In this document: positions 32,660-60,701 of the stretch, piece after piece
Numbering within the stretch: position 1 is the first letter of the stretch
Layout of the letters: every line of letters starts with the position of its first letter
Source: Acidobacteriota bacterium
Lineage (GTDB): Bacteria; Acidobacteriota; Blastocatellia; RBC074
Direction: 5' to 3'
Length of the DNA: 64,000 nt
Assembly: GCA_016789645.1 (NCBI GenBank)
Contig: JAEUQP010000041.1
Span: forward strand, 1,570 to 65,569
Notes under the pieces: generated by a model
What the model saw: only the letters and a program-made list of their open reading frames with translations
The model's database searches: none
What the model was told of the DNA's origin: nothing
Made by a program: the position numbers and the translations under genes

Positions 32660-32745
32660 GCCGGGGTGGTGGAACTGGTAGACACACAGGACTTAAAATC
32701 CTGAGACTCGAAAGGGTCGTGCGGGTTCGATTCCCGCCCTCGGCA
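32660..32745 (+). tRNA. tRNA-Leu (anticodon TAA), type II with long variable arm
   Basis: Acceptor stem GCCGGGG/CCTCGGC, anticodon loop CTTAAAA, long extra arm, T-loop GGTTCGATTCC. Confidence 0.8.
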
Positions 32746-32766: not shown

Positions 32767-33990
32767 TTACTTGCAGCGCGACTTGTCGTTTCTGTCCACG
32801 GATTGGCCAATCTGCGCCAGAGTTTGCGCTGCGCGGCCCATCGCCCCCGGCGTGTGATGCAGATAATGCGCAATCAATTCCTTGGCCGTGTGCCCGGTGA
32901 TTTGCCCGATGGTGTCAAAATCCATGCCGGCATTTGCCAATCGCGTCGTCACGGTGTGTCGAGTGGTATGGAGCACAACTCCGTCGGCGGTGCGCTTGCC
33001 ATACGGAATTTCGCATTGTTCACATGCCGTTTTCAGAATTCGATAAAATTTGGGATAGATTTTTCCACTGGCGCCAAACACAAACGCGCCGCGCTTTCCC
33101 TGCTCCGCTTCGGCCAGCACGTCGCGCATCGGTTCCGTAATCGGGATCTGCTTGTAACGGTCTGTTTTGGCCTGGTAGATCAACACCCGCCCATTGTCGC
33201 GGTCAATATCCGTCCACCGCAATCCAACGATTTCCGAATGACGCGCGCCGCTGAGCATGGCGAATTGCAAAATCCAGCCAACCCGGACGCGAGCCTGGTG
33301 CGCGTTGTGGCGATTTTGCGCCCGCGCGTCGCCGTCCAGGGCATCCGGCGGACGGCGAAGCCAGGTCAACAGCCGGACATACTCTTCTTCGCTGAGAATT
33401 CGTTCGCGGCGAGATTTTTTAACTTTTAATCGAGGAATGCGCGGCGGTCGCCAAGAATTTAATTCCGGAAAAAAACTGGCGGCGGCGTTCAGGGTTGCCG
33501 CGATCACGTTCAGTTCCCGGTTGACACTCGACGCGGCCTGTCCCTGCTCAGTCCTGAGCGTGGCGTATTGGCGAATCTGAGGCGTTTCCAGCCCCTCCAC
33601 CGTCACCGGCGATTGATACCCTCCGACAGGGCAAAATCGTTCGTCTAGCGTCACCAGCGGGTCCAGCAACCGCAACCAGGTAAACAGCACTCGCCGGGCG
33701 CGAGACCGTTCGGCAGTCGGCGTGATGGTGGCCAGCCGGAGGGTGATCAGTTGCTGCAACCGAGGCCGGTCTTTGGCCAGCGCAAATCCGTATCTGGCTG
33801 CCCGCTCGGTTTCCCGGATGGCGGCAATGGCGCGCTCCGCTTCCGCGCGCGAAGTGAATCCCTTGGTTCGAACCCGCCGGCGTGGCTTCCCTGCTCCCTG
33901 AGAAATGCGAATATCAATTTCCCAGACCGGGTTCCCGGCTTCGTCGAAGAGTGGTTTTTTGTCCAGTCCTTTTGCTCGTTTAATGGCCAT
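32767..33990 (-). CDS. int: Tyrosine-type site-specific integrase
   Basis: C-terminal catalytic region HTTRHTVTTRLANAGMDFDTIGQITGHTAKELIAHYLH (R..H..R..Y type); adjacent to the tRNA 3' end; start at ATG 33990 (MAIKRAKG). Confidence 0.85.
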   Translation of the reverse strand: MAIKRAKGLDKKPLFDEAGNPVWEIDIRISQGAGKPRRRVRTKGFTSRAEAERAIAAIRETERAARYGFALAKDRPRLQQLITLRLATITPTAERSRARRVLFTWLRLLDPLVTLDERFCPVGGYQSPVTVEGLETPQIRQYATLRTEQGQAASSVNRELNVIAATLNAAASFFPELNSWRPPRIPRLKVKKSRRERILSEEEYVRLLTWLRRPPDALDGDARAQNRHNAHQARVRVGWILQFAMLSGARHSEIVGLRWTDIDRDNGRVLIYQAKTDRYKQIPITEPMRDVLAEAEQGKRGAFVFGASGKIYPKFYRILKTACEQCEIPYGKRTADGVVLHTTRHTVTTRLANAGMDFDTIGQITGHTAKELIAHYLHHTPGAMGRAAQTLAQIGQSVDRNDKSRCK

Positions 33991-34000
33991 AAAACACAGC

Positions 34001-34045
34001 AAAAACCAGTACTGATTTCAGTCAAAAAATCAGTACTGGTTTTTT
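34001..34045. promoter_or_regulatory. Palindrome (17-bp arms, 10-nt spacer) with ATCAGTACTG core, upstream of int
   Basis: AAAAACCAGTACTGATT-tcagtcaaaa-AATCAGTACTGGTTTTT; shares its core with the 61-bp palindrome at 34468-34528. Confidence 0.5.
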
Positions 34046-41448: not shown

Positions 41449-41578
41449 AGAGCGGTTTTTCCGCGCGTGGAAGGCAGGTGTCTTGGCAGGTCTCATAAGC
41501 CCGCTTCAGGCCGGTTCAAGTCCGGCACGCGCAATCGAGACTGGATGACTTGGTTGAGCTTCAAGACGGTCTCCAAAA

Positions 41579-42550: not shown

Positions 42551-43235
42551 CGTGTGCGGTGATTGCCAGGGAACCGGCTGGACGGTCGTCGTCGGCAAGG
42601 GGGCACGGCTTTGCGTCTGTCCGCTTGGCGAAGCGATTCGTTCCAAGCGAATCGTTGCTGCGCGGGAATTGCCGGTGAATACGCCGCCGCGCATGTTTGA
42701 GCGGTTTCGGATCGAAACCATGCTGCCGGACCCGGCGCGCCACGAAAAGCAGGTTGAACTGCTGGCACTACTGAAAACGAATCCGCGCCGCAGTGTGGTG
42801 ATGTTTGGGGCAAATTCGTTCGGGGTCGGAAAATCGGCGATTGGCTGGGCGCTCTACAACTCGGCAGTGCAAGCCGGTCGTCAGGCCGCTGGCGGCAAAT
42901 TGTCTTCCTTCGTGCGCATGATGCAGGCCTGGGAGATTGACGGCGTTGAGCCGGTCGTCAGGCCGTCCGATTTGCGATTGTGGGATTGCGGACTGCTCTG
43001 GTTGGACGAATTCGGCAAGGTGAAACCGAGCGAGTTCGCCACGCGCCAGGTATTTGATCTGATTGATGTGGCCTACGAAGAGCAACAGCAAATCGTTGTT
43101 GCCACCAATCTAAGCCGGGACGAGTTGAAAGAGTTTTGGGATTCACAAGGGACGCAGTACGGCGAAGCGATTCGCCGGCGGCTGTTTGATCGTTCCGATG
43201 TGATTGCCGTGGATTTTGGAGAGGAGAACGCATGA
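42483..43235 (+). CDS. DnaC/IstB-like AAA+ ATPase (helicase loader)
   Basis: Walker A GANSFGVGKS and Walker B LLWLDEFG; N-terminal Cys cluster. Confidence 0.7.
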   Translation: MEAIKTAIANLPVTAGNPARSCDVCGDCQGTGWTVVVGKGARLCVCPLGEAIRSKRIVAARELPVNTPPRMFERFRIETMLPDPARHEKQVELLALLKTNPRRSVVMFGANSFGVGKSAIGWALYNSAVQAGRQAAGGKLSSFVRMMQAWEIDGVEPVVRPSDLRLWDCGLLWLDEFGKVKPSEFATRQVFDLIDVAYEEQQQIVVATNLSRDELKEFWDSQGTQYGEAIRRRLFDRSDVIAVDFGEENA

Positions 43236-44137
43236 GTACTGAACTACAGGCTACTTTGTTTGATTACTCAAAGCTGGACGCGGAATCGCGCATTGTGATT
43301 CAGCAGCGCGCCGGCGAGATTAAGACGCTGGCCAAGCGAGTTGCCGGGGACATTGTCGAGATCGGCGGCAAATTGGCCGATGTGAAGGATCGGCTCGGCG
43401 GCAATGGCCGGTTCAGCGCCTGGCTGCAAGCGGAGCTGGGTTGGTCGGAGCGCACTGCCTACAACTTCATAGCCGTGCATGAAAAATTTGGCGCTGCAAA
43501 TTTTGCAATCGAAAACGTCGCGCCCTCTGCGTTGTATCTGTTGGTTGCTCCCGCGACGCCGGAACCGGCACGCCAGGCAGTGATTCAGATGGCCAACCAG
43601 GGCCAGAAAGTGACGCACAAAACCGCCAAGGTAATCGTCGAGGCGGCCAAAGAGGCCGAACCGAAGACGGCGGAAATGTTTCCGGAATCAGACGAGGCGC
43701 TGGATCCAGACGAAGCGAACGGGCAGGTTACAGCGGAGGAATTAAAGCCGGACGAAACCAGTCCTGTCTTGACTCCAGACCGGGTCGCAGAGCCGGAGCC
43801 ACAGCCAAAGCCGAAGGCGAAACCAGCCTCTGAAGCAGTAAGACCAGTCGCGACCAGCCAGACGCCATGGTCGAGTCAGCAGATCGTGATCGGCGTCACG
43901 TTGATGCCTGCTGATGGTGACCCTCGCGGTCGGCAGGCGATTGTTTCGATTCGCGCTGGCGACGGTTCGCCGACCATCCAGTCCAAGCGTTTACCAGATG
44001 CGCCTGGTCAATGGCCGCGCCCGATTGACGAAATGATCGAAACCTTCGCGTTTCAGTTGGCGGCAAAGCCGGAACCTAAAAAGCCGGCCAGCAAAAAGCC
44101 GGTCAGTAAAACCATGAAGAAAGGAGCAAAGAAATAA
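43232..44137 (+). CDS. DUF3102-domain phage protein
   Basis: LADVKDRLGGNGRFSAWLQAELGWSERTAYNFIAV matches the DUF3102 core; Pro/Lys-rich C-terminus. Confidence 0.55.
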   Translation: MSTELQATLFDYSKLDAESRIVIQQRAGEIKTLAKRVAGDIVEIGGKLADVKDRLGGNGRFSAWLQAELGWSERTAYNFIAVHEKFGAANFAIENVAPSALYLLVAPATPEPARQAVIQMANQGQKVTHKTAKVIVEAAKEAEPKTAEMFPESDEALDPDEANGQVTAEELKPDETSPVLTPDRVAEPEPQPKPKAKPASEAVRPVATSQTPWSSQQIVIGVTLMPADGDPRGRQAIVSIRAGDGSPTIQSKRLPDAPGQWPRPIDEMIETFAFQLAAKPEPKKPASKKPVSKTMKKGAKK

Positions 44138-44569
44138 ATGGCTACGATCAAAATGCCCGACAACCAAAGCTTTGAACTTGATGACGAAATCGCCGGCGAC
44201 GACGTGCAATTGCGCGCGGCGCTCTCTGCGGCGTATCCGGACGCGGCCAATGCGACATTTGAACGCTCCGGCGGCAAAGACAGCAAGCCGCTGGTGGTCA
44301 AAGTCGTGAAAAAAGCCGGAACCAAGGGGCTGCATGCTGCGATTTCGGAACTGCTGGCTGCGCCGGAGTATCAGAATCCAGCGGTGGCGATGCAGTGTCG
44401 AATCGCCGAGCGGGGCAGTCTTTCACATCTGGAAATGCTGGCGTTGAAGCCGGAAATCGAAAACGCCATAAAGACTGCCGAGGCTGATTTGCGACTTGCG
44501 GGCGACGCCGAGCGGGTGCTGGCCACGGCCCCTGCCGCAACCAGTGGTGCGATCCCGCTGGGATTTTAA
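44138..44569 (+). CDS. Hypothetical protein (possible beta-grasp/Ubl-like partner of the downstream cassette)
   Basis: 143 aa with strong ribosome-binding site AAAGGAG; N-terminal IKMPDNQSFELDD...VQLRAALSAAYPD...ATFERSGG resembles a beta-grasp. The Ubl assignment is speculative. Confidence 0.4.
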   Translation: MATIKMPDNQSFELDDEIAGDDVQLRAALSAAYPDAANATFERSGGKDSKPLVVKVVKKAGTKGLHAAISELLAAPEYQNPAVAMQCRIAERGSLSHLEMLALKPEIENAIKTAEADLRLAGDAERVLATAPAATSGAIPLGF

Positions 44570-44686
44570 CGAGCTTACGGGGCGTGGCTGGCTGGCCCGC
44601 ATTGCCGGTGGGTATATCACTTGCACTACTTGAACTGCACCAATCAGCCGCCGGCAAACAGTCGCGCCCTGTGAGGATTTACCAGA

Positions 44687-45502
44687 ATGAGCAACGCCGC
44701 GAACGCAATTCGATTTTTGGAAAGCCAAACAATGACGGCACATGCCGCCGTCGCGCGTCTGCGCGACACGCTGGGAGCGCTGACGCCGTTAAGCCTGTTT
44801 CAATATTACTTCCCAAAGGAATTCGCCATGCAACAAGTTTCCTGGCAAACCGGCGCGGGCGTGCGGGAAGCCTGTACTCGATTTGCCGAATTGGTGGATC
44901 TCCGATTGTTTCCGTGTTGCAGTCACTGGGACATTGACGAGGGCTGGGATGAATACAGCGGCGACATCGTATTTCTGGCTCCGTTTCCGGCCTGGTATGA
45001 CGAAGGTCGCGATCCGACGGAGCTGGGCCGATTGGAAGAGTTAGTTTTACTCCAGCTTGGTTACCTGGAGCGCCGCGGCGAAGAGATCGAGCACGTTGTT
45101 GACCCGGCGCGCAGCAAGCCAATCAATTTGGAGTATCTGGAGCAGTTATGCGACCGGAAGCGCAAGCCGGTGTGCTGGTTGCCCCTGGCTGTCAAATTCT
45201 TCCTGAAAACCACCCGAAATACCTGGTGCGACATAACCCAGGAGGAACTCGACAATTGCGCAGAATGGCCGACCTGGTCACTGGAAACAACCGAATGGCT
45301 GCGCAAGGAATGGGCAGAGGCGCAGGTGATTTCCAGTCGCGTCGCTCTCGTCGAAGAGTGGCTGGGCCAAAAGCCGGGCAATCAGCAAATCATCGAAACT
45401 CTGCTGCGCCAGGCGACCAACCTGCCCAAGGAAAAGCGCCAGCGCGTTCGGGTCACAAACGCGCCATTGATGAACGTGATGGAGGAGTTTTTTGATGAGT
45501 AA
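44687..45502 (+). CDS. Hypothetical Cys/Trp-rich protein, first gene of the coupled E2-like/JAB/E1 operon
   Basis: 271 aa; GAGGA ribosome-binding site; stop overlaps the next start (ATGAGTAA); no recognisable domain. Confidence 0.45.
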   Translation: MSNAANAIRFLESQTMTAHAAVARLRDTLGALTPLSLFQYYFPKEFAMQQVSWQTGAGVREACTRFAELVDLRLFPCCSHWDIDEGWDEYSGDIVFLAPFPAWYDEGRDPTELGRLEELVLLQLGYLERRGEEIEHVVDPARSKPINLEYLEQLCDRKRKPVCWLPLAVKFFLKTTRNTWCDITQEELDNCAEWPTWSLETTEWLRKEWAEAQVISSRVALVEEWLGQKPGNQQIIETLLRQATNLPKEKRQRVRVTNAPLMNVMEEFFDE

Positions 45503-46190
45503 GCATGCCAATCCAATTCGACCCGCAATTCTGGCTCCGATGGGATTGCGAGCCGACGCCGCGTTGTTTTTCGTTGAAAACGAAGTTGTGTTTCAAGGAG
45601 TCGGCGACGATGGCGTCGAGCAAATCAAATTCATCTCGCCGGCGACGCTGCGCGAGGCCTTCGCGAAAGAGCCGATGGATTCGGGCTGGCTGCCGCCGGG
45701 CGTGAACCGCTGCGGCAGCAGTGCAAAGGGCGATTGGATGTTGCGCTGGCACGAACCGGCAATTTACACGGTGCGACTGGAAGGTCGAAAACAGCCGCTG
45801 CGCGTGCCGATGCCGTCACTGATCTGGTTTGGCATCAAGCACAATTACTACATCTTTGCCGCGCGCGAAGCGAAATTCACGCCAAAAGCGGCGTTGTACG
45901 CCGCGCCGGTGGCCAATGTCAGCAGTCCTGGCCTGATTTGCTTTGGCAAGAATGCGCATCCGGATGTCGCCAAGGGAGGTTTTGAAAAAGCCTGGCGCAC
46001 GTTCTGGCAAGCGCCGTTTAATAACGATCACGACGACGGAAAATCAAAAACCTTTCCCAATGCCATTAACCAGCAGCTCCAGAAGCTCGCCAAAGAAAAA
46101 ACGAAAATCTATCCCGTGAAGGATTTGGTTTCGATGGGAATCACTCTGGAAGCTGCAATTCAACGCTTAACCCGGAGGGAACGATCATGA
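45495..46190 (+). CDS. Candidate ubiquitin-conjugating (E2-like) protein
   Basis: Assignment from operon position only (immediately upstream of JAB and E1, all start/stops overlapping); single plausible active-site Cys in GLICFGKNAHPD; GGAGGAG ribosome-binding site. Confidence 0.35.
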   Translation: MSKHANPIRPAILAPMGLRADAALFFVENEVVFQGVGDDGVEQIKFISPATLREAFAKEPMDSGWLPPGVNRCGSSAKGDWMLRWHEPAIYTVRLEGRKQPLRVPMPSLIWFGIKHNYYIFAAREAKFTPKAALYAAPVANVSSPGLICFGKNAHPDVAKGGFEKAWRTFWQAPFNNDHDDGKSKTFPNAINQQLQKLAKEKTKIYPVKDLVSMGITLEAAIQRLTRRERS

Positions 46191-46852
46191 CCCCACAAGT
46201 CGCCACGCAAAGAACTTTTTGTCCGACACAGTTAATTGAATACAAGACTGCCCGGCTGACTTCACAACCGCCGGAATGCAGCGGAGGGCTATTCGATTAC
46301 GTGTTCGCCGGTGATGGCGTGTACGTCCACGCAGCCCGGCCTGAACTGGAGGTTTGTTTTTGTGTCGAGCGGGCAACAGTGCGCGGGTTGCCGCCACTGT
46401 TGCCCGTGTTTGACTTCCGGCTGCCAAGAATTCCCGAAAGTTTTGTTTGTTCGATGATTCGCGACGCCAACGTCTGGGCAGAGCAGGGACTCGAAACCCT
46501 GTTTCACTTGTGCTGGTCGGACTTGGCGCTGATGGATGATGGCTGGGTCGGTTATGAGCCGGAGCAGGCGCGCACGGCGAAAAGTTGCCGACCATTTCAA
46601 GACGGCGGCAGTCATGATCGAGCCATCGTCGAGGTGCACTCGCATCATTCAATGGCTGCAAAATTTTCTCCGCAAGATGATGCCGACGAAACCGGTTTTC
46701 GGTTGTATGCCGTGATCGGCAGATTGCCGAACGCGCCGGAGATTCGCGTGCGTGTCGGGGTCTATGGGTATTTCTGGGAGATTCCGGCGTCCTGGGTGAT
46801 GGATTTGCCGGATGGCGTGCGGGGCTGTGAAATACAGGAGGTGGTGCTATGA
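46187..46852 (+). CDS. JAB/MPN+ (JAMM) metalloprotease, deubiquitinase-like
   Basis: Exact JAMM motif E...HSHHSMAAKFSPQD (HxHx7Sx2D); GGAGGGA ribosome-binding site; ATGA overlaps with both neighbours. Confidence 0.7.
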   Translation: MTPQVATQRTFCPTQLIEYKTARLTSQPPECSGGLFDYVFAGDGVYVHAARPELEVCFCVERATVRGLPPLLPVFDFRLPRIPESFVCSMIRDANVWAEQGLETLFHLCWSDLALMDDGWVGYEPEQARTAKSCRPFQDGGSHDRAIVEVHSHHSMAAKFSPQDDADETGFRLYAVIGRLPNAPEIRVRVGVYGYFWEIPASWVMDLPDGVRGCEIQEVVL

Positions 46853-47718
46853 GCGCAAAGCAAATTGATCTTTCGTTTGTTCACGCCGCAACTCTAATGC
46901 TGCCGGCCACCAACACCTGGAACATTGTTCTGGTCGGCTGTGGCGGCACGGGCAGTTGGCTGGCTCCCTCGATCGCCAGGATTGCGCGTGTACTCCAGGA
47001 GCAGGGTAAAACCGCCAATCTCTGGTTTGTGGATCCTGACACCGTCGAAGAGAAAAACATTCCCCGCCAAAATTTCTGCCAGGCGGAACTGGGGCAGAAC
47101 AAAGCGGCGACGCTGGCCGGCCGGTTGAGCGCGGCATGGGGCGTGGATATTCGCATCAGCCGGGAGCGATTCAATCCCGCCAGGATCAGCGGTTCGCAGT
47201 GGATCGGCTGGGATAGCGTGACGGTGGTGGTTGGCTGCGTGGACAACGCAGCAGGGCGCAATGAGCTGGCAAAGTCGCTTCAATACAACCGCGCAGGTGC
47301 TGCGCATCGCATCTGGTGGCTGGATTGCGGTAATGCCGAACATTCCGGCCAGGTGCTGTTCGGCTCAGCCGCGCAGTCGCGGCAACTGGCCGACGCCCTG
47401 GTGTCTCGCAAAATTTGCAAAGCGCTGCCGGCTCCAAACTTGGTCGCGCCGGATTTGCTGAAGGCTCGCCCGGAAGAATTAAAAACCAACCTGAGCTGCG
47501 CGGAAATCCAGCTTGCCAACGCGCAATCGCTGGCCGTGAATCAAATGGTCGCTGCCGTGGCGACTGATTACCTGACGCGCGTGGTTTTCGGGGGATTGCG
47601 CCGGTTTGCGACTTATTTTGATCTTGAAAGCGGCTCGATGCGGTCGCTGTTCAATACCGCCGACACTATCGGCCAATACACTAAACGCAGAGCGAAAGCA
47701 GAGCCGACACGAGTCTAA
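46849..47718 (+). CDS. ThiF/MoeB-family E1-like activating enzyme
   Basis: Rossmann motif VLVGCGGTGSWLA, ThiF motif DPDTVEEKNIPRQNF, Cys-containing motifs CVDNAAG and DCGNAEHSG. Confidence 0.75.
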   Translation: MSAKQIDLSFVHAATLMLPATNTWNIVLVGCGGTGSWLAPSIARIARVLQEQGKTANLWFVDPDTVEEKNIPRQNFCQAELGQNKAATLAGRLSAAWGVDIRISRERFNPARISGSQWIGWDSVTVVVGCVDNAAGRNELAKSLQYNRAGAAHRIWWLDCGNAEHSGQVLFGSAAQSRQLADALVSRKICKALPAPNLVAPDLLKARPEELKTNLSCAEIQLANAQSLAVNQMVAAVATDYLTRVVFGGLRRFATYFDLESGSMRSLFNTADTIGQYTKRRAKAEPTRV

Positions 47719-47733
47719 GCGGCTCTGCTTTTT
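47698..47733 (+). terminator. Rho-independent terminator closing the E1 operon
   Basis: GCAGAGCCG-acacgagtctaa-gCGGCTCTGC followed by TTTTT; the loop contains the E1 stop codon. Confidence 0.6.
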
Positions 47734-47741
47734 GAGGAGTT

Positions 47742-48161
47742 ATGGAAGCAATTATGGCACGAAGGGGCACATCGGTTCGGGTTTTGGGTTTGTCAAAATC
47801 CTTGCAAGTGAAATACCGGCGGGCGGTCGCGCTCAGTGGCGCCCGCTCGCAGTCGCAGCACCTGCTGAGCATGATTCGGCGCGCGATTTTGGAGGCGGAG
47901 CAGAAACATGGCGATTTACTGCACGCCTTGACGCCGGAAGAGCAGGATGTTTTGGGAGTGATCGAAGCCGGCGCGGCGGAAGTGTCACAAATCGCCGAGG
48001 AAACGCTTTTGACAGTGCGCCGCGTCGAACAGGTGCTTGATGAACTGATTGGGCGTGGCCTGGTGGAATCCCGGCGCAAAGGTGGAAAAACCGAAAGCGC
48101 ACGCGGCGCTGTCATTAAGCTGTATTTCCTAGCCGAAAATAAAACGATTCGATTGATATAG
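47742..48161 (+). CDS. Putative DNA-binding regulator (RHH-like N-terminus + wHTH-like C-terminus)
   Basis: 139 aa; LTPEEQDVLGVIEAGAAEVSQIAEETLLTVRRVEQVLDELIGRGLVE resembles a MarR/wHTH; own ribosome-binding site GAGGAG. Confidence 0.4.
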   Translation: MEAIMARRGTSVRVLGLSKSLQVKYRRAVALSGARSQSQHLLSMIRRAILEAEQKHGDLLHALTPEEQDVLGVIEAGAAEVSQIAEETLLTVRRVEQVLDELIGRGLVESRRKGGKTESARGAVIKLYFLAENKTIRLI

Positions 48162-48376
48162 TCAGGCCGCTTCAGCTCAGCCACCTCCAAGGAAGAAGCG
48201 TTGATGATCGAACACACGGATGCCGGTGAAGCGGCATTCGTGTGTTTAACACCTCGCCAAAAATAATCCAGCGAAAAAACCTACCCTTTAACGGTTGAGA
48301 CCCGATAGGCGTCGGGCTTTGGGCAATGGCTGTGCCGGGCTGTTGCGAAACAATTTCCCCCGCTCAGGTGTGAGCA

Positions 48377-48670
48377 ATGCAAATAACGGGTGGCAGGGCA
48401 ATGGAAGTTGGGCCGCATGATTGGCTGATTAAAACTGCGACCGGTGCAGTGTTGGGCGCAATTTTGATGCGTTTGTATGACGCTTTGAAAATGGTAAGCC
48501 GTGAAGACTTAAGCAAAGCCTTGGAAGACTTTTCAAAAAACCAAATTGCGCCGATGAAAGAGCGACAAAGCAAGTTTGATCTTACGTTGCAGGACATGCA
48601 GAGAGCTATTACGCAAACCAAAGAGATTGTCGTGCGTATCGCAACCAAACTGGAAGTGTCTCACGAATGA
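48377..48670 (+). CDS. Hypothetical protein (low-GC islet, gene 1)
   Basis: 97 aa; stop overlaps the start of the next gene; local GC is markedly below the window average. Confidence 0.35.
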   Translation: MQITGGRAMEVGPHDWLIKTATGAVLGAILMRLYDALKMVSREDLSKALEDFSKNQIAPMKERQSKFDLTLQDMQRAITQTKEIVVRIATKLEVSHE

Positions 48671-57671: not shown

Positions 57672-60600
57672 ATGAAAGTTCAACGCGCAATCGTCTTGTG
57701 TGTGTTGCTGCTGATGCCCCTGCTGGCGATGGCGCAACCTTCGCTCTGCACCATCAGCGGCACGCTGTACGACTCGACGGGGTCGGCCTGCTCCAACTGC
57801 AAGGTCACCATCAGCAAAGCCCGTCAGGGTTCCACGCCGCTAAACGCGCCGCCCATCGAAAAGCGCACCGACAGCAATGGCGCGGTCAGCTTCACGGCAG
57901 TGCAAGGATCGTTCATTACGATCACGGGAACGTTTTCGATTGGCCGGTATAACTTTGCAACCGGCCTGGAAATGTATGTGCCGCTGCAAAGCACGGCGAC
58001 CCTGGCCACGCTGCAAACGGCGGAAGACGCGCTCAATGCGTTGATTTCTTCGACCACGTATGCACCAGCAGACATTCCCGTTATCACGAAAACGGCCAGC
58101 GCCAGCCTGTCGAACGAATTCGCGCTCGGCTCGTTGGCAACCGGCCTACTGAAAAACACCACAACGACCGGCGTCCCGACGATTGCCGTCGCCGGGACGG
58201 ATTATGTTGCGCCGGGGGCGATCACCGGCGGCGGTCAGACAATGGCGACGGCGCGGATTCTGGGACGCTCGACCGCATCCACGGGCGCAATCGAGGAAAT
58301 CAGTATCGGCTCCGGCCTGAGCCTGAGCGGCGGCACGCTCAGCGCATCGGGTGGCGGCGCGGTGTCGTCTGTGTTTGGACGCTCTGGGGCGGTCGTCGCG
58401 GCGCAGGACGACTACACATTCGCGCAACTTGCCAGCAAGCCGACGACGTTGGCGGGATACGGGATTGCGGATGCCCAGCCGTTGGACGCCGACTTAACGG
58501 CGATTGCGGCACTCGGCCCCTCGAACGACGACATCATTCAGCGGAAGGCCGGAGTCTGGACGAATCGCACCGTCGCGCAGTTCAAAACCGATTTGGGGTT
58601 GGCCACGATTGCCACCAGCGGCAGCGCGTCAGATTTGAGCGCCGGGACTGTGCCGTTGGCTCGATTGGCAGGAATCACGAACACTGAAATCAGTAACAGC
58701 GCGGCCATCGCCTACAGCAAATTAAATCTGACCGGCGCGATCCTGAACGCCGATCTGGCTGGTTCGATTGCTAATGCGAAGCTGGCGAATTCCGCGATCA
58801 CGATTGCCGGGAGCAGTACCAGCCTGGGCGGTGCAATCACACTCGACACGATCACCGGCCTTTCAACGACCGGCGTCGTCAAGCGCACGGGCGCAAACAC
58901 ACTGGCGATTGCAACGGTAGATTTGACCAGCGAAGTGACCGGCGACTTGCCCTTTGCGAATTTCGTGCAGGCAGGAAGCGCGGGTTTCGTTGGCGCAACC
59001 GGCGCGGGCGATTACAGCCATCGAACGCCAACGCAGGTTACGGCGGCGCTGGATGCGTTCGTCGGCGATTCGGGCAGCGGTGGAACGAAGGGACTTGTAC
59101 CTGCGCCAACGGCGGGCGATGCGGCGGCGAATAAATACCTCAAGGCAGACGGCACTTGGGCGACGGTTTCAGGCAGCTCCGGCATTACCGTTGGCACAAC
59201 CACAATCACCAGTGGCACGTCTGGTCGCGTTGGTTACAACAATGCGGGCGTCTACGGTGAATATCCCGTAACGGGAACGGCGGGGAATGTGGTGCTGAGC
59301 GCGTCGCCGACGTTGACAGGGACGGTCGCAATGGCCGCGCAGACAAACAGCGGGACAATTGTGCAGACCAGCGCGAGCGCGACTGCGTTTGTGAGCGGGG
59401 CAAGTGGCTCAACGAATCCGGCTTTTGTGATTGACAACTCCACAGCAAGTCAGGCCAGCGGTTTGAAAGTCATAGGCAAAGCAGATGGAACCGCGCCAGA
59501 AATTGCAGCTATCAGCCGCACGCAAATCACCACTGCCCTTGCCGGAAATGGCTTGGCAATTACAGCAGACCCGGCCATCGCGGGCAGTTCCGTTGCGGGC
59601 GCGGCGGCTGGCGGCAGTGTGACGATTACGGCTGGGGCGGCGGCGCGGAACACAAGCGGGAATGCCGCAGGTGGGTCAATAAATCTCGCGCCTGGAACAG
59701 GAATTGGAACAGGTGCAGCCGGTGATGTGATTTTGACTCGCGGGAATCTAATTTTTGGTGCAGCAACTTCTGGGAACATATATCTCAGAAACACAGGTTC
59801 TGGCCCTTCTCTGTTCATCGGCTCAGCGGATGGAGCGGCAAATAATGCAGGCGTGTGGGTACAGCAAGTGTCATTCACGCAGTTGACATCTGACAGCGGA
59901 GTAGTAGTTGGAATACAAGCGGCGGGCAGCACCGGGATGTTTTTAGGTTCTGGTGTACCTGTTTATTGGAGCACTAATGCATCTAGTTCCACGACTGGAT
60001 TAAGAGACGCTCCATCTGTTGGATTTTTACCAAAAGCCGCAGGTGTACTTCGGCTGACCAACGGCTCCACCGGCGCAGGCTCGCTCGTTCTCGGCACATC
60101 CACAGTCGGCAGCATTGGCACATCCGGCGTTGGAGTCTTGGCGATTGCCAACGGCACAGCCCCGACCAGTAGTCCTGCCGATGAATTTCAACTTTACTCC
60201 GCCGACTCCGCAGCCGGTGACGCCAACGCATTCGCCCGCAACGAGGCGGGCGAAGTGAACCGCTTGACCGGGCTTTCCGCGCGCGTCTCTACGCAATTTG
60301 ACAAAACCAGCGACACCACGCTGGCCAACGTGACCGGCCTTTCCCGCAACGTGGAAGCCGGGCGCACCTACGCCTTTACAGCTGTCCTCTATACCACCTC
60401 CAATGTGGCAGGCGGCGTCAAGGCGGCCATCGGCGGCACGGCAACCGCAACCTCGATTATCTATCAAGCGGACGTGCTCGATGGTTCAACACAGGCCACA
60501 GTTGGAACCGCTCGCGCAACCGCACTGGCAACCACTGTCGGCGATGTGACAGCGGTTACGGCGGCGCGAATTACCATTACGGGAGCAATCGTTGTTAATG

Positions 60601-60701
60601 CTGCCGGTACGCTCACCGTCCAATTCGCGCAAAACGCCAGCAATGGCAGCGCGTCCAGCGTGCTGGTCAATTCCAGTTTTCAATTGATTCCGATTAGCTA
60701 A
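57672..60701 (+). CDS. Large secreted Gly/Ala/Thr-rich fibre-like protein (tail-fibre/adhesin-like)
   Basis: Signal peptide; 1009 aa; segments resembling tail-fibre motifs (VSSVFGRSGAVVAAQDDYTFAQL...LAGYGIADA); low-complexity G/A/T/S beta-helix-like repeats. Confidence 0.5.
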   Translation: MKVQRAIVLCVLLLMPLLAMAQPSLCTISGTLYDSTGSACSNCKVTISKARQGSTPLNAPPIEKRTDSNGAVSFTAVQGSFITITGTFSIGRYNFATGLEMYVPLQSTATLATLQTAEDALNALISSTTYAPADIPVITKTASASLSNEFALGSLATGLLKNTTTTGVPTIAVAGTDYVAPGAITGGGQTMATARILGRSTASTGAIEEISIGSGLSLSGGTLSASGGGAVSSVFGRSGAVVAAQDDYTFAQLASKPTTLAGYGIADAQPLDADLTAIAALGPSNDDIIQRKAGVWTNRTVAQFKTDLGLATIATSGSASDLSAGTVPLARLAGITNTEISNSAAIAYSKLNLTGAILNADLAGSIANAKLANSAITIAGSSTSLGGAITLDTITGLSTTGVVKRTGANTLAIATVDLTSEVTGDLPFANFVQAGSAGFVGATGAGDYSHRTPTQVTAALDAFVGDSGSGGTKGLVPAPTAGDAAANKYLKADGTWATVSGSSGITVGTTTITSGTSGRVGYNNAGVYGEYPVTGTAGNVVLSASPTLTGTVAMAAQTNSGTIVQTSASATAFVSGASGSTNPAFVIDNSTASQASGLKVIGKADGTAPEIAAISRTQITTALAGNGLAITADPAIAGSSVAGAAAGGSVTITAGAAARNTSGNAAGGSINLAPGTGIGTGAAGDVILTRGNLIFGAATSGNIYLRNTGSGPSLFIGSADGAANNAGVWVQQVSFTQLTSDSGVVVGIQAAGSTGMFLGSGVPVYWSTNASSSTTGLRDAPSVGFLPKAAGVLRLTNGSTGAGSLVLGTSTVGSIGTSGVGVLAIANGTAPTSSPADEFQLYSADSAAGDANAFARNEAGEVNRLTGLSARVSTQFDKTSDTTLANVTGLSRNVEAGRTYAFTAVLYTTSNVAGGVKAAIGGTATATSIIYQADVLDGSTQATVGTARATALATTVGDVTAVTAARITITGAIVVNAAGTLTVQFAQNASNGSASSVLVNSSFQLIPIS

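Follow-up and report, generated by a model that had tools for sequence, protein, structure and literature searches.

Within a 64,000-nt stretch of an Acidobacteriota bacterium genome (contig JAEUQP010000041.1, positions 1,570 to 65,569, assembly GCA_016789645.1; this whole stretch is hereafter called the window), a prophage carries five co-linear genes for a ubiquitin-like protein (Ubl), a helical protein, an E2, a JAB/JAMM metallopeptidase and an E1. We consider it likely that these genes represent a Ubl conjugation system of the PRTRC class (ParB-Related, ThiF-Related Cassette; NCBIfam TIGR03734-03742), which corresponds to the operons that Iyer, Burroughs and Aravind (2006; PMC1779556) classed as type 6d, and that the system forms an integral part of a temperate phage's replication module. 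Direct support comes from the homology of four components, the conservation of catalytic residues, a conserved KG boundary in the Ubl, the gene order, purifying selection and a replication/partition context. A Ubl conjugation cassette of the PRTRC/Iyer-Aravind type had been proposed in the initial annotation, which was made from the sequence letters. This proposal held, as PRTRC_B, PRTRC_A and PRTRC_ThiF were the best NCBIfam matches of the three enzymes and the gene order matched that of Ralstonia phage Dina.

Components of the cassette

The genes of the cassette and of its upstream partner are arranged as follows:

43232-44137, + strand: gene of the 301-aa DUF3102 partner protein, in the ParB/PRTRC_E slot
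44138-44569, + strand: gene of the putative Ubl precursor, 143 aa
44687-45502, + strand: gene of the 271-aa all-helical fifth component, in the PRTRC_F/alpha-hel2 position
45495-46190, + strand: E2 gene (Prok-E2_D/PRTRC_B-like), 231 aa, Cys149 codon 45939-45941
46187-46852, + strand: JAB/JAMM metallopeptidase gene (PRTRC_A-like), 221 aa, H151 codon 46637-46639
46849-47718, + strand: E1 gene (ThiF-fold adenylating enzyme, PRTRC_ThiF-like), 289 aa, Cys217 codon 47497-47499

For comparison, an E1-pattern scan of JGI metagenomes revealed at least 286 relatives, in addition to four IMG/VR viral contigs of the window type. We fetched 80 of the at least 286 metagenomic loci; individual relatives are denoted by L and a number. 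The last gene of the cassette had been read as an E1, and this assignment was borne out. By far its best NCBIfam match was PRTRC_ThiF TIGR03736 (9.5e-41, 139.7 bits against a cut-off of 144.75), while the ThiF Pfam family matched at 8.5e-15. The protein exhibits a single adenylation domain with the ATP loop GCGGTGS, R73/Q74 and D132. Seven residues (D62, R73, Q74, K85, D132, C190 and C217) were invariant in 74/74 sequences, and the G-loop glycines were present in 73/74. Cys217, located in an 'SC' motif, was the only invariant cysteine that is also invariant in canonical PRTRC E1s, which makes it the candidate catalytic residue. When the E1 profile was compared with the PDB, UBA6, UBA5 and UBA1 (6e-7) ranked ahead of ThiF, Cap2, BubCD and MoeB.

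The protein with a single candidate catalytic cysteine that precedes the JAB gene was recognized as an E2. It matched Pfam Prok-E2_D (PF14460) at 1.1e-25, above the gathering score, and its best NCBIfam match was PRTRC_B TIGR03737 (65.8 bits, cut-off 131.45). Cys149 was invariant in 52/52 relatives, and the PRTRC_B proteins of phages Dina and BgVeeders33 have it as well. Likewise, the third gene of the enzyme operon encodes a JAMM peptidase, as had been anticipated from its exact JAMM motif. E103, H151, S152, H153, S161 and D164, and with them the five JAMM residues, were invariant in 59/59 relatives. The best NCBIfam match was PRTRC_A TIGR03735 (1e-9, 38.2 bits, cut-off 101.8), Prok-JAB matched at 9e-5, and the protein could be aligned with PRTRC_A of Dina. 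Judged from these profiles, the homology of E2 and JAB to PRTRC B and A is clear, yet the proteins are not equivalogs. The PDB contained no sequence relative of the E2, the JAB or the 271-aa helical protein, and none of the five core proteins could be placed in a PHROG family.

The 143-aa protein had been suspected to be beta-grasp-like. Its AlphaFold2 (AF2) model, with a predicted local distance difference test (pLDDT) score of 74, showed a beta-beta-alpha-beta-beta domain (residues 1-56), a low-confidence KKAGTKG segment (pLDDT below 50 for residues 61-64) and a helical domain (67-130). The protein can thus be described as a beta-grasp domain of residues 1-64 (44138-44329) that ends in KKAGTKG (Gly64 codon 44327-44329), followed by a flexible linker and a 79-aa helical C-domain (~67-143) ending in IPLGF. 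A profile-profile comparison (hhalign) of 28 window-type with 122 canonical PRTRC_C N-domains gave a probability of 92% and E 6e-7 over 52 aligned columns, with GTKG as the end on both sides. This comparison indicates that the N-domain is a Prok_Ub homologue and that the 143-aa protein is a Ubl, in line with the suspected beta-grasp character.

The KG boundary recurred in relatives. In 36 distinct window-type Ubls the N-domain stopped at x-K-G, and the tail consisted of an ~80-aa domain with the terminus (I/V)PxGF. In canonical PRTRC_C proteins (n = 120) the boundary, near position 69, reads GTKG (118) or GRKG (2); three of these proteins end exactly at GTKG, and the remainder possess tails of 1-139 residues. 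Furthermore, the Ubl is naturally split at this site. The Ubl of the syntenic phage L006/L007 runs in frame into an HNH homing endonuclease just after G64, and the C-domain forms its own 79-aa ORF (L006:8866-9881); both halves are under purifying selection, with ratios of nonsynonymous to synonymous substitution rates (dN/dS) of 0.08 and 0.17. The finished plasmid pPg_04 of Pseudanabaena galeata (L155, NZ_CP112878.1:4764-5224) encodes a 70-aa Ubl ORF ending in ...GTKGTT* and a separate 83-aa C-domain ORF. Other Ubl variants carry unrelated sequence after KG. Because the GTKG/KG boundary is conserved and natural splits occur there, we conclude that Gly64 is the predicted mature, conjugation-competent C-terminus of the Ubl. 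The tail would most plausibly be removed by the JAB, since in the Bub system the Ubl precursor BubAB is matured by the JAB of BubCD (PMC11601596).

The Ubl also matched the PADLOC model PDLC01077 ('C3a152, Type III-C specific') at 2e-8. We traced this model to a three-member cluster (Cylst_6373) of Shah et al. 2018. The cassette on Anabaena cylindrica plasmid pANACY.02 adjoins a type III CRISPR module, and the label probably reflects a coincidence of neighbourhood, not function.

The 271-aa protein had been considered as possibly E2- or Ubl-like, which was not borne out; instead, it constitutes a helical fifth component. Its AF2 model was mostly helical and of high confidence (pLDDT 91, predicted template modelling score 0.85). 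The protein had no Pfam match, and no fold match in the PDB or among viral proteins. The family comprises 317 clusters at 50% identity (E ≤ 1e-3). None of 148 members examined matched alpha-hel2 or any other relevant Pfam family. In distant members, a gene for a ~145-aa Ubl and a Prok-E2_D gene still flank the helical gene. A pattern scan for close relatives, an insensitive method given that the E1-based scan found many, yielded a single short contig from GTDB genomes and nothing from IMG/VR. Conservation of at least 93% is confined to P76 and D182, which speaks for a scaffold or adaptor function and against catalysis; an adaptor or E3-like specificity subunit is a candidate role.

The 301-aa protein, whose gene had been left out of the initial annotation, proved to be a conserved part of the cassette and its sixth component. 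It is composed of a DUF3102 N-terminal domain (7e-7), a domain here called E-like (~205-285; 43844-44086) and a Lys/Ala-rich tail. The gene immediately 5' of the Ubl gene always specifies the conserved ~70-aa E-like domain, which we observed in 41 loci. In the window, L006 and L027 it is joined to DUF3102 and a Lys/Ala-rich tail, and in L077, L078 and L105 it is fused to ParB_N and HTH_ParB. Further E-like proteins possess a Ser/Thr/Pro/Gln-rich linker ending in QISLF, QLTLF or QLSLF(T). The bacterial beta-clamp-binding consensus is QL[SD]LF, and the QLxLF ends of the E-like proteins resemble this motif. The fetched loci together contained 3,889 ORFs with a length of 100 aa or more. A C-terminus of the QL[ST]LF type occurred in 22 of them, and 17 of these 22 were the E-like gene, a strong enrichment. 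Several elements with such clamp-like ends carry their own dnaN. The proteins with a clamp-like C-terminus are encoded in the following loci:

L045, L051-L053, L056, L062, L064, L065, L080, L082, L087, L093, L095, L096 and L099
L156:4208-4675 (pANACY.02)

Gene order and replication context

All six ORFs listed in the initial annotation were confirmed at their coordinates in the window sequence, as were the coupled junctions, the strong ribosome-binding sites (RBS), the terminator with the E1 stop codon in its loop and the motifs GCGGTGS, DPDTVEEKNIPRQNF, HSHHSMAAKFSPQD and GLICFGKNAHPD. One start required correction: the E2 gene begins at ATG 45495 and not at TTG 45492, so that the protein, listed with 232 aa, has 231 aa. 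The TAA of the 301-aa gene (44135-44137) directly abuts the ATG of the Ubl gene (44138). The 271-aa gene and the E2 gene are joined by the 8-nt overlap ATGAGTAA (the junction reads ...GATGAGTAA), and ATGA overlaps link E2 to JAB (46187-46190) and JAB to E1 (46849-46852). An RBS of the GGAGG type precedes every start by 7-12 nt. In comparison with two relatives, dN/dS ranged from 0.05 to 0.29 for every cassette gene.

The gene order was assessed in 32 loci with at least 3.6 kb of sequence upstream of the E1 gene. The order Ubl-helical-E2-JAB-E1 was found in 27/32, and one further case was an artefact of ORF calling. Based on the dN/dS values and on an order kept in 27 of 32 independent loci, the cassette ORFs can be regarded as real genes and not as chance reading frames. 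The cassettes of some relatives are interrupted: the E1 of L064 (7294-10804) is split by ~2.4 kb, L029 (8457-9995) and L028 (1164-2587) carry ~1.5 kb between JAB and E1, and L006 (10828-11082) contains an additional 84-aa ORF between the helical and E2 genes. Inteins were noticed in TerL of L006 and ThyX of L011.

The setting in the window is that of a prophage. A tRNA-Leu gene (32660-32745) adjoins a tyrosine integrase gene (32767-34002, - strand), which is followed by genes for a phage metallopeptidase, Gam, a replisome organiser, a DnaC-like loader, the DUF3102 protein and the cassette. Genes for an endolysin, TerL, a portal, a MuF-like protein and the major capsid protein lie 3' of it. The integrase/tRNA-Leu pair, the replication genes upstream and the lysis, packaging and virion genes downstream thus confirm the prophage context. 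Since the cassette is co-directional with the replisome organiser and DnaC-like genes and coupled by stop and start to the gene upstream, it is the tail of the replication module and not a moron or defence slot. The location in a temperate phage had been recognized correctly in the initial annotation, while its placement of the cassette in an 'accessory region' did not stand. Two further features of the prophage are a tRNA-Met gene (anticodon CAT; 41462-41534), which lies within the replication module between the Gam-like and replisome-organiser genes, and a 1009-aa ORF (57672-60701) in the virion module, which had no PHROG or Pfam match at E ≤ 1e-3.

The relatives place the cassette in replication and partition modules of phages and plasmids, as is evident from the ParB fusions, the clamp-like ends, the PHROG neighbours (ParB-like proteins, ParA, sliding clamp, integrase and portal) and the order on pANACY.02. 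On this plasmid of Anabaena cylindrica PCC 7122 (L156), genes for PrimPol, an E-like protein (...NQLTLF*), Ubl, helical protein, E2, JAB and ThiF are followed by two small ORFs, dnaN and the gene for the gamma/tau subunit of DNA polymerase III. A tblastn search with the E2 revealed 43 plasmids, mostly cyanobacterial, 25 of which were typed as conjugative. No phage in GenBank/INPHARED carried the 271-aa family or a window-type E2.

Three further features accompany the cassette:

44570-44686, + strand: structured RNA in the gap that separates the Ubl gene from the enzyme genes (folding energy)
47694-47737, + strand: intrinsic-terminator-like hairpin with U-tract (sequence and folding energy)
47742-48161, + strand: gene of a 139-aa winged helix-turn-helix (wHTH) protein after the cassette (weak profile matches)

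The 117-nt gap between the Ubl and 271-aa genes folds at -52 kcal/mol (z -3.75), and none of 200 shuffled sequences was as stable. With its 3' arm, the long stem overlaps the RBS of the downstream 271-aa gene. The fold recurs in the related phage L006, and L075 and L041 carry a hairpin at the same position; Rfam yielded no match within 43900-48500, this structure included. A possible function of the RNA structure is to adjust how much Ubl is made relative to the enzymes. The terminator hairpin (47694-47732) comprises a 13-bp stem with the E1 stop TAA inside the loop, followed by UUUUU; its energy of -21.1 kcal/mol (z = -2.8) was equalled in 2/200 shuffles. Scans for sigma-70 promoters gave nothing useful near the cassette, and acidobacterial promoters may deviate from that consensus. 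A small regulator had been noted after the operon. It is indeed present, with weak MarR_2/TrmB-type wHTH matches, all under cut-off. The gene is kept only in the syntenic phage L006, the closest relative (59% identity), and all other loci differ downstream; judged by this distribution, it is not a conserved cassette component.

In the metagenome-assembled genome (MAG), the locus tags run from JNK38_01070 onwards, and in the NCBI annotation the E2 and JAB are 'hypothetical', with 'ThiF family adenylyltransferase' as the name given to the E1. A collection of 15 billion proteins contained the E2, JAB and E1 of this MAG but no exact match to the 271-, 301- or 139-aa protein. The public annotation may have used other starts or overlooked these genes.

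Proposed mechanism and rival explanations

From these data we infer a cycle of cleavage, thioester relay and conjugation, with a role for the helical protein, a target and a benefit to the phage. The 143-aa protein would be a precursor that the JAMM peptidase cuts after Gly64 (...AGTKG|). The products would be the beta-grasp Ubl (64 residues) and a helical fragment (79 residues) with an action of its own. The E1 would adenylate Gly64 and then hold the Ubl as a thioester on Cys217, from which it would be handed to Cys149 of the E2. The E2 would pass the Ubl to target lysines; in this step the 271-aa helical protein would probably serve as its partner or confer specificity. The JAMM peptidase could also take the Ubl off again. 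The upstream protein, which combines an E-like domain with a predicted DNA- or replisome-tethering module (DUF3102 and Lys-rich tail here, ParB or a clamp-binding-like peptide in relatives), might be the substrate or an adaptor that places the reaction on the DNA or replisome of the element.

Several points weigh against the PRTRC/6d assignment and the mechanism built on it. The E2, JAB and E1 all score under the NCBIfam PRTRC cut-offs, and the 143-aa protein had no Pfam, NCBIfam or PHROG match, Pfam having been tried to E ≤ 10. Although ubiquitin, NEDD8 and Rad23-UBL were on top of the Foldseek search with the Ubl model, none of these matches was significant. The helical and E-like components share only position and general character with PRTRC_F and PRTRC_E. 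For the 271-aa family, hhalign against PRTRC_F (5, then 9 sequences, both shallow) gave E 0.27 and 0.5. For the E-like domain, hhalign against PRTRC_E, likewise with shallow canonical alignments, gave E 0.099 and detected no homology, so that a very remote relationship may have gone unseen in both cases. A second E1 cysteine, C190, is invariant in the subfamily, so that the choice of C217 follows solely from its conservation in canonical PRTRC E1s. The 301-aa protein of the window carries neither ParB nor a clamp motif, and the link to the replisome comes from the relatives. Finally, the literature searched contained no report of a PRTRC/6d cassette having been tested biochemically or genetically; PRTRC was described in the Burkholderia gladioli prophage AB2 with the remark that the function of the cassette 'has not been studied' (PMC13366799).

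We favour a role of the system in the replication, partition or establishment of the element itself. A more specific and speculative version, which we regard as not very probable, is a Ubl system tethered to the replisome or partition complex. Its E-like partner would deliver E2~Ubl to the DNA of the element (by way of a ParB clamp, the DUF3102/Lys-rich DNA-binding module or the QLxLF peptide), where the sliding clamp or another DNA-bound protein would be modified. Such a system would be an analogue, in bacterial viruses, of PCNA ubiquitination and SUMOylation and might control replication, copy number or the decision between lysis and lysogeny. 

A role in counter-defence, in which the Ubl machinery or JAB of the element inactivates host immune proteins soon after entry or strips Ubl tags of the Bil or CBASS type (type II CBASS, the cyclic-oligonucleotide-based antiphage signalling system) attached by the host, appears doubtful. 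It would agree with the position in early or replication gene blocks of phages and conjugative plasmids and with the confinement of the family to mobile elements, and the JAB could undo host conjugation. Yet a full set of E1, E2 and Ubl exceeds what deconjugation needs, a survey of anti-defence genes in plasmid leading regions makes no mention of PRTRC or ThiF (0 occurrences of ThiF), and the links to ParB, clamp motifs and DNA-binding tails point to DNA transactions of the element itself.

Anti-phage defence or superinfection exclusion by the prophage, with Bil-like tagging of proteins of incoming phages, seems improbable. The bacterial E1/E2-type systems type II CBASS, Bil and Bub have been described as antiphage systems, either demonstrated or proposed (PMC11601596); prophages often bear defence genes, the order Ubl...E2-JAB-E1 resembles bilABCD, and the E1 weakly matches PADLOC models of CBASS E1-E2 proteins. 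However, no PADLOC defence model fits the E2, JAB or helical protein. The relatives reside in replication and partition modules with ParB, PrimPol and dnaN instead of defence islands, canonical PRTRC cassettes also occur in phage genomes such as Dina, and the single-domain E1 of 289 aa differs from BilD. The initial annotation had offered superinfection exclusion or modification of own or host proteins as alternatives. The former was weakened because the cassette is coupled to the replication module on the same strand, and is not a separately transcribed moron; modification of own or host proteins is the better fit.

A ThiF/MoeB sulfur-carrier or other adenylation pathway without protein conjugation, with the Ubl as a ThiS/MoaD-like thiocarboxylate carrier, is very improbable: the NCBI name and weak NCBIfam ThiF/MoeB matches would agree with it, but these matches reached only 19-41 bits against cut-offs of 152-376 (PRTRC_ThiF 140), the E1 profile lies closer to UBA6, UBA5 and UBA1, an E2 with invariant Cys and a JAMM peptidase are present as obligate partners, the Ubl shows KG followed by a long extension in place of a free GG, and no thiamine, molybdenum cofactor or sulfurtransferase genes are located nearby.

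For the preferred reading of a conjugation system in the service of the element, the data yield explicit predictions: a mature Ubl ending at Gly64 (GTKG), processing by the JAB, and the catalytic residues Cys217 of the E1 and Cys149 of the E2. Cultivable carriers are Ralstonia phage Dina for the canonical type and Anabaena cylindrica PCC 7122 with pANACY.02 for the window type. Bacterial Ubl conjugation has been demonstrated so far for defence systems (CBASS, Bil, Bub), while the PRTRC/6d class was predicted in 2006. The large unnamed branch of this class defined here encompasses no fewer than 286 loci from metagenomes, 43 plasmids and several viral contigs of IMG/VR. Unexpectedly, its apparent link is with ParB, the beta clamp and replication genes and not with immunity. 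Should this link hold, mobile elements would tag their own replication or partition machinery, which would widen the known roles of prokaryotic Ubl systems.

Comparison with known systems

The cassette had been likened to the Bil and Bub systems, a comparison that failed in its details. With BilABCD it shares the order Ubl, E2, JAB and E1, the cysteine-based E1 and E2 and the lack of an E3 gene; the JAB of Bil is a maturase and deconjugase, to which the putative role of the cassette JAB can be likened. In contrast, BilD possesses an E1 of the IAD-AAD-CYS architecture (PMC11601596), there are no PADLOC or Pfam cross-matches, and the window cassette contains an additional helical protein and an E-like partner in a replication instead of a defence context. 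The target of Bil is a phage tail protein. We rejected an assignment to Bil based on the E1 architecture and the lack of PADLOC matches for the E2 and JAB; the Ubl carried only the CRISPR-accessory label. Bub (6E/DUF6527) likewise resides in mobile operons, and its JAB (BubCD) cuts a Ubl precursor (BubAB) to the active Ubl. However, Bub uses Tyr/Ser oxyesters and has no catalytic cysteines (PMC11601596), whereas the cysteines of the window family are invariant. Moreover, its DUF6527 serine protease and its fused Ubl-E2 or JAB-E1 proteins have no counterpart at the window locus. With Cys149 (E2) and Cys217 (E1) invariant and no DUF6527 protein or PADLOC Bub match, an assignment to Bub was rejected as well. 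Type II CBASS shares the E1/E2 chemistry with a JAB antagonist (Cap2/Cap3), and the E1 weakly matches the Cap2 E1 domain. Cap2 is, however, an E1-E2 fusion that conjugates the CD-NTase C-terminus, while the window encodes separate E1 and E2 proteins and a dedicated Ubl, and the locus contains no CD-NTase or effector; hence, this assignment was also discarded.

The closest known system is PRTRC, exemplified by the RefSeq-annotated cassette of Ralstonia phage Dina (NC_055026, gp02-gp07), whose order E-C-F-B-A-ThiF is matched by the window. Pfam assigns the C protein of Dina to Prok_Ub (residues 2-64 of 129), F to alpha-hel2, B to Prok-E2_D and A to DUF2016 plus Prok-JAB. The differences are substantial. 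Measured against the NCBIfam PRTRC definitions, the E2, JAB and E1 score under the cut-offs for B, A and ThiF (66, 38 and 140 bits versus 131, 102 and 145), the models for F and E gave no match, and the cassette has no adjacent ParB, its slot being occupied by the DUF3102 protein. The window Ubl is missed by the Prok_Ub hidden Markov model, and its tail forms a domain of its own (~80 aa, terminus (I/V)PxGF). The helical and upstream proteins show no detectable homology to PRTRC_F (alpha-hel2) and PRTRC_E: BLASTP of the 143-, 271- and 301-aa proteins against C, F and E of Dina gave nothing significant, and single-sequence Pfam scans to E ≤ 10 revealed no Prok_Ub match for the Ubl N-domains and no PRTRC_E match for the E-like domains. 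The hosts differ as well. Here they are an acidobacterial prophage and cyanobacterial plasmids, while Iyer et al. list mainly beta- and delta/epsilon-proteobacteria and some Bacillus, cyanobacteria and Bacteroides (PMC1779556).

The canonical and the window type both encode five co-linear genes for a Ubl, a helical protein, an E2 (Prok-E2_D), a JAB with an N-terminal alpha+beta domain and an E1. In both, the Ubl shows GTKG followed by a C-terminal extension, and the E2 Cys, the JAMM residues and the E1 'SC' cysteine are common to the two. The preceding gene in each case encodes a small domain with a low-complexity tail, and both are associated with ParB and carried by plasmids, integrative and conjugative elements and phages. 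All five components listed for type 6d (PMC1779556, Table 1, row 6d) are present, co-linear and located on a mobile element. Judged by sequence, the cassette is a diverged member of the PRTRC/Iyer-Aravind 6d class, in which four proteins are homologous to PRTRC proteins and two components, the helical and the upstream protein, appear to have been replaced or to have diverged beyond recognition.

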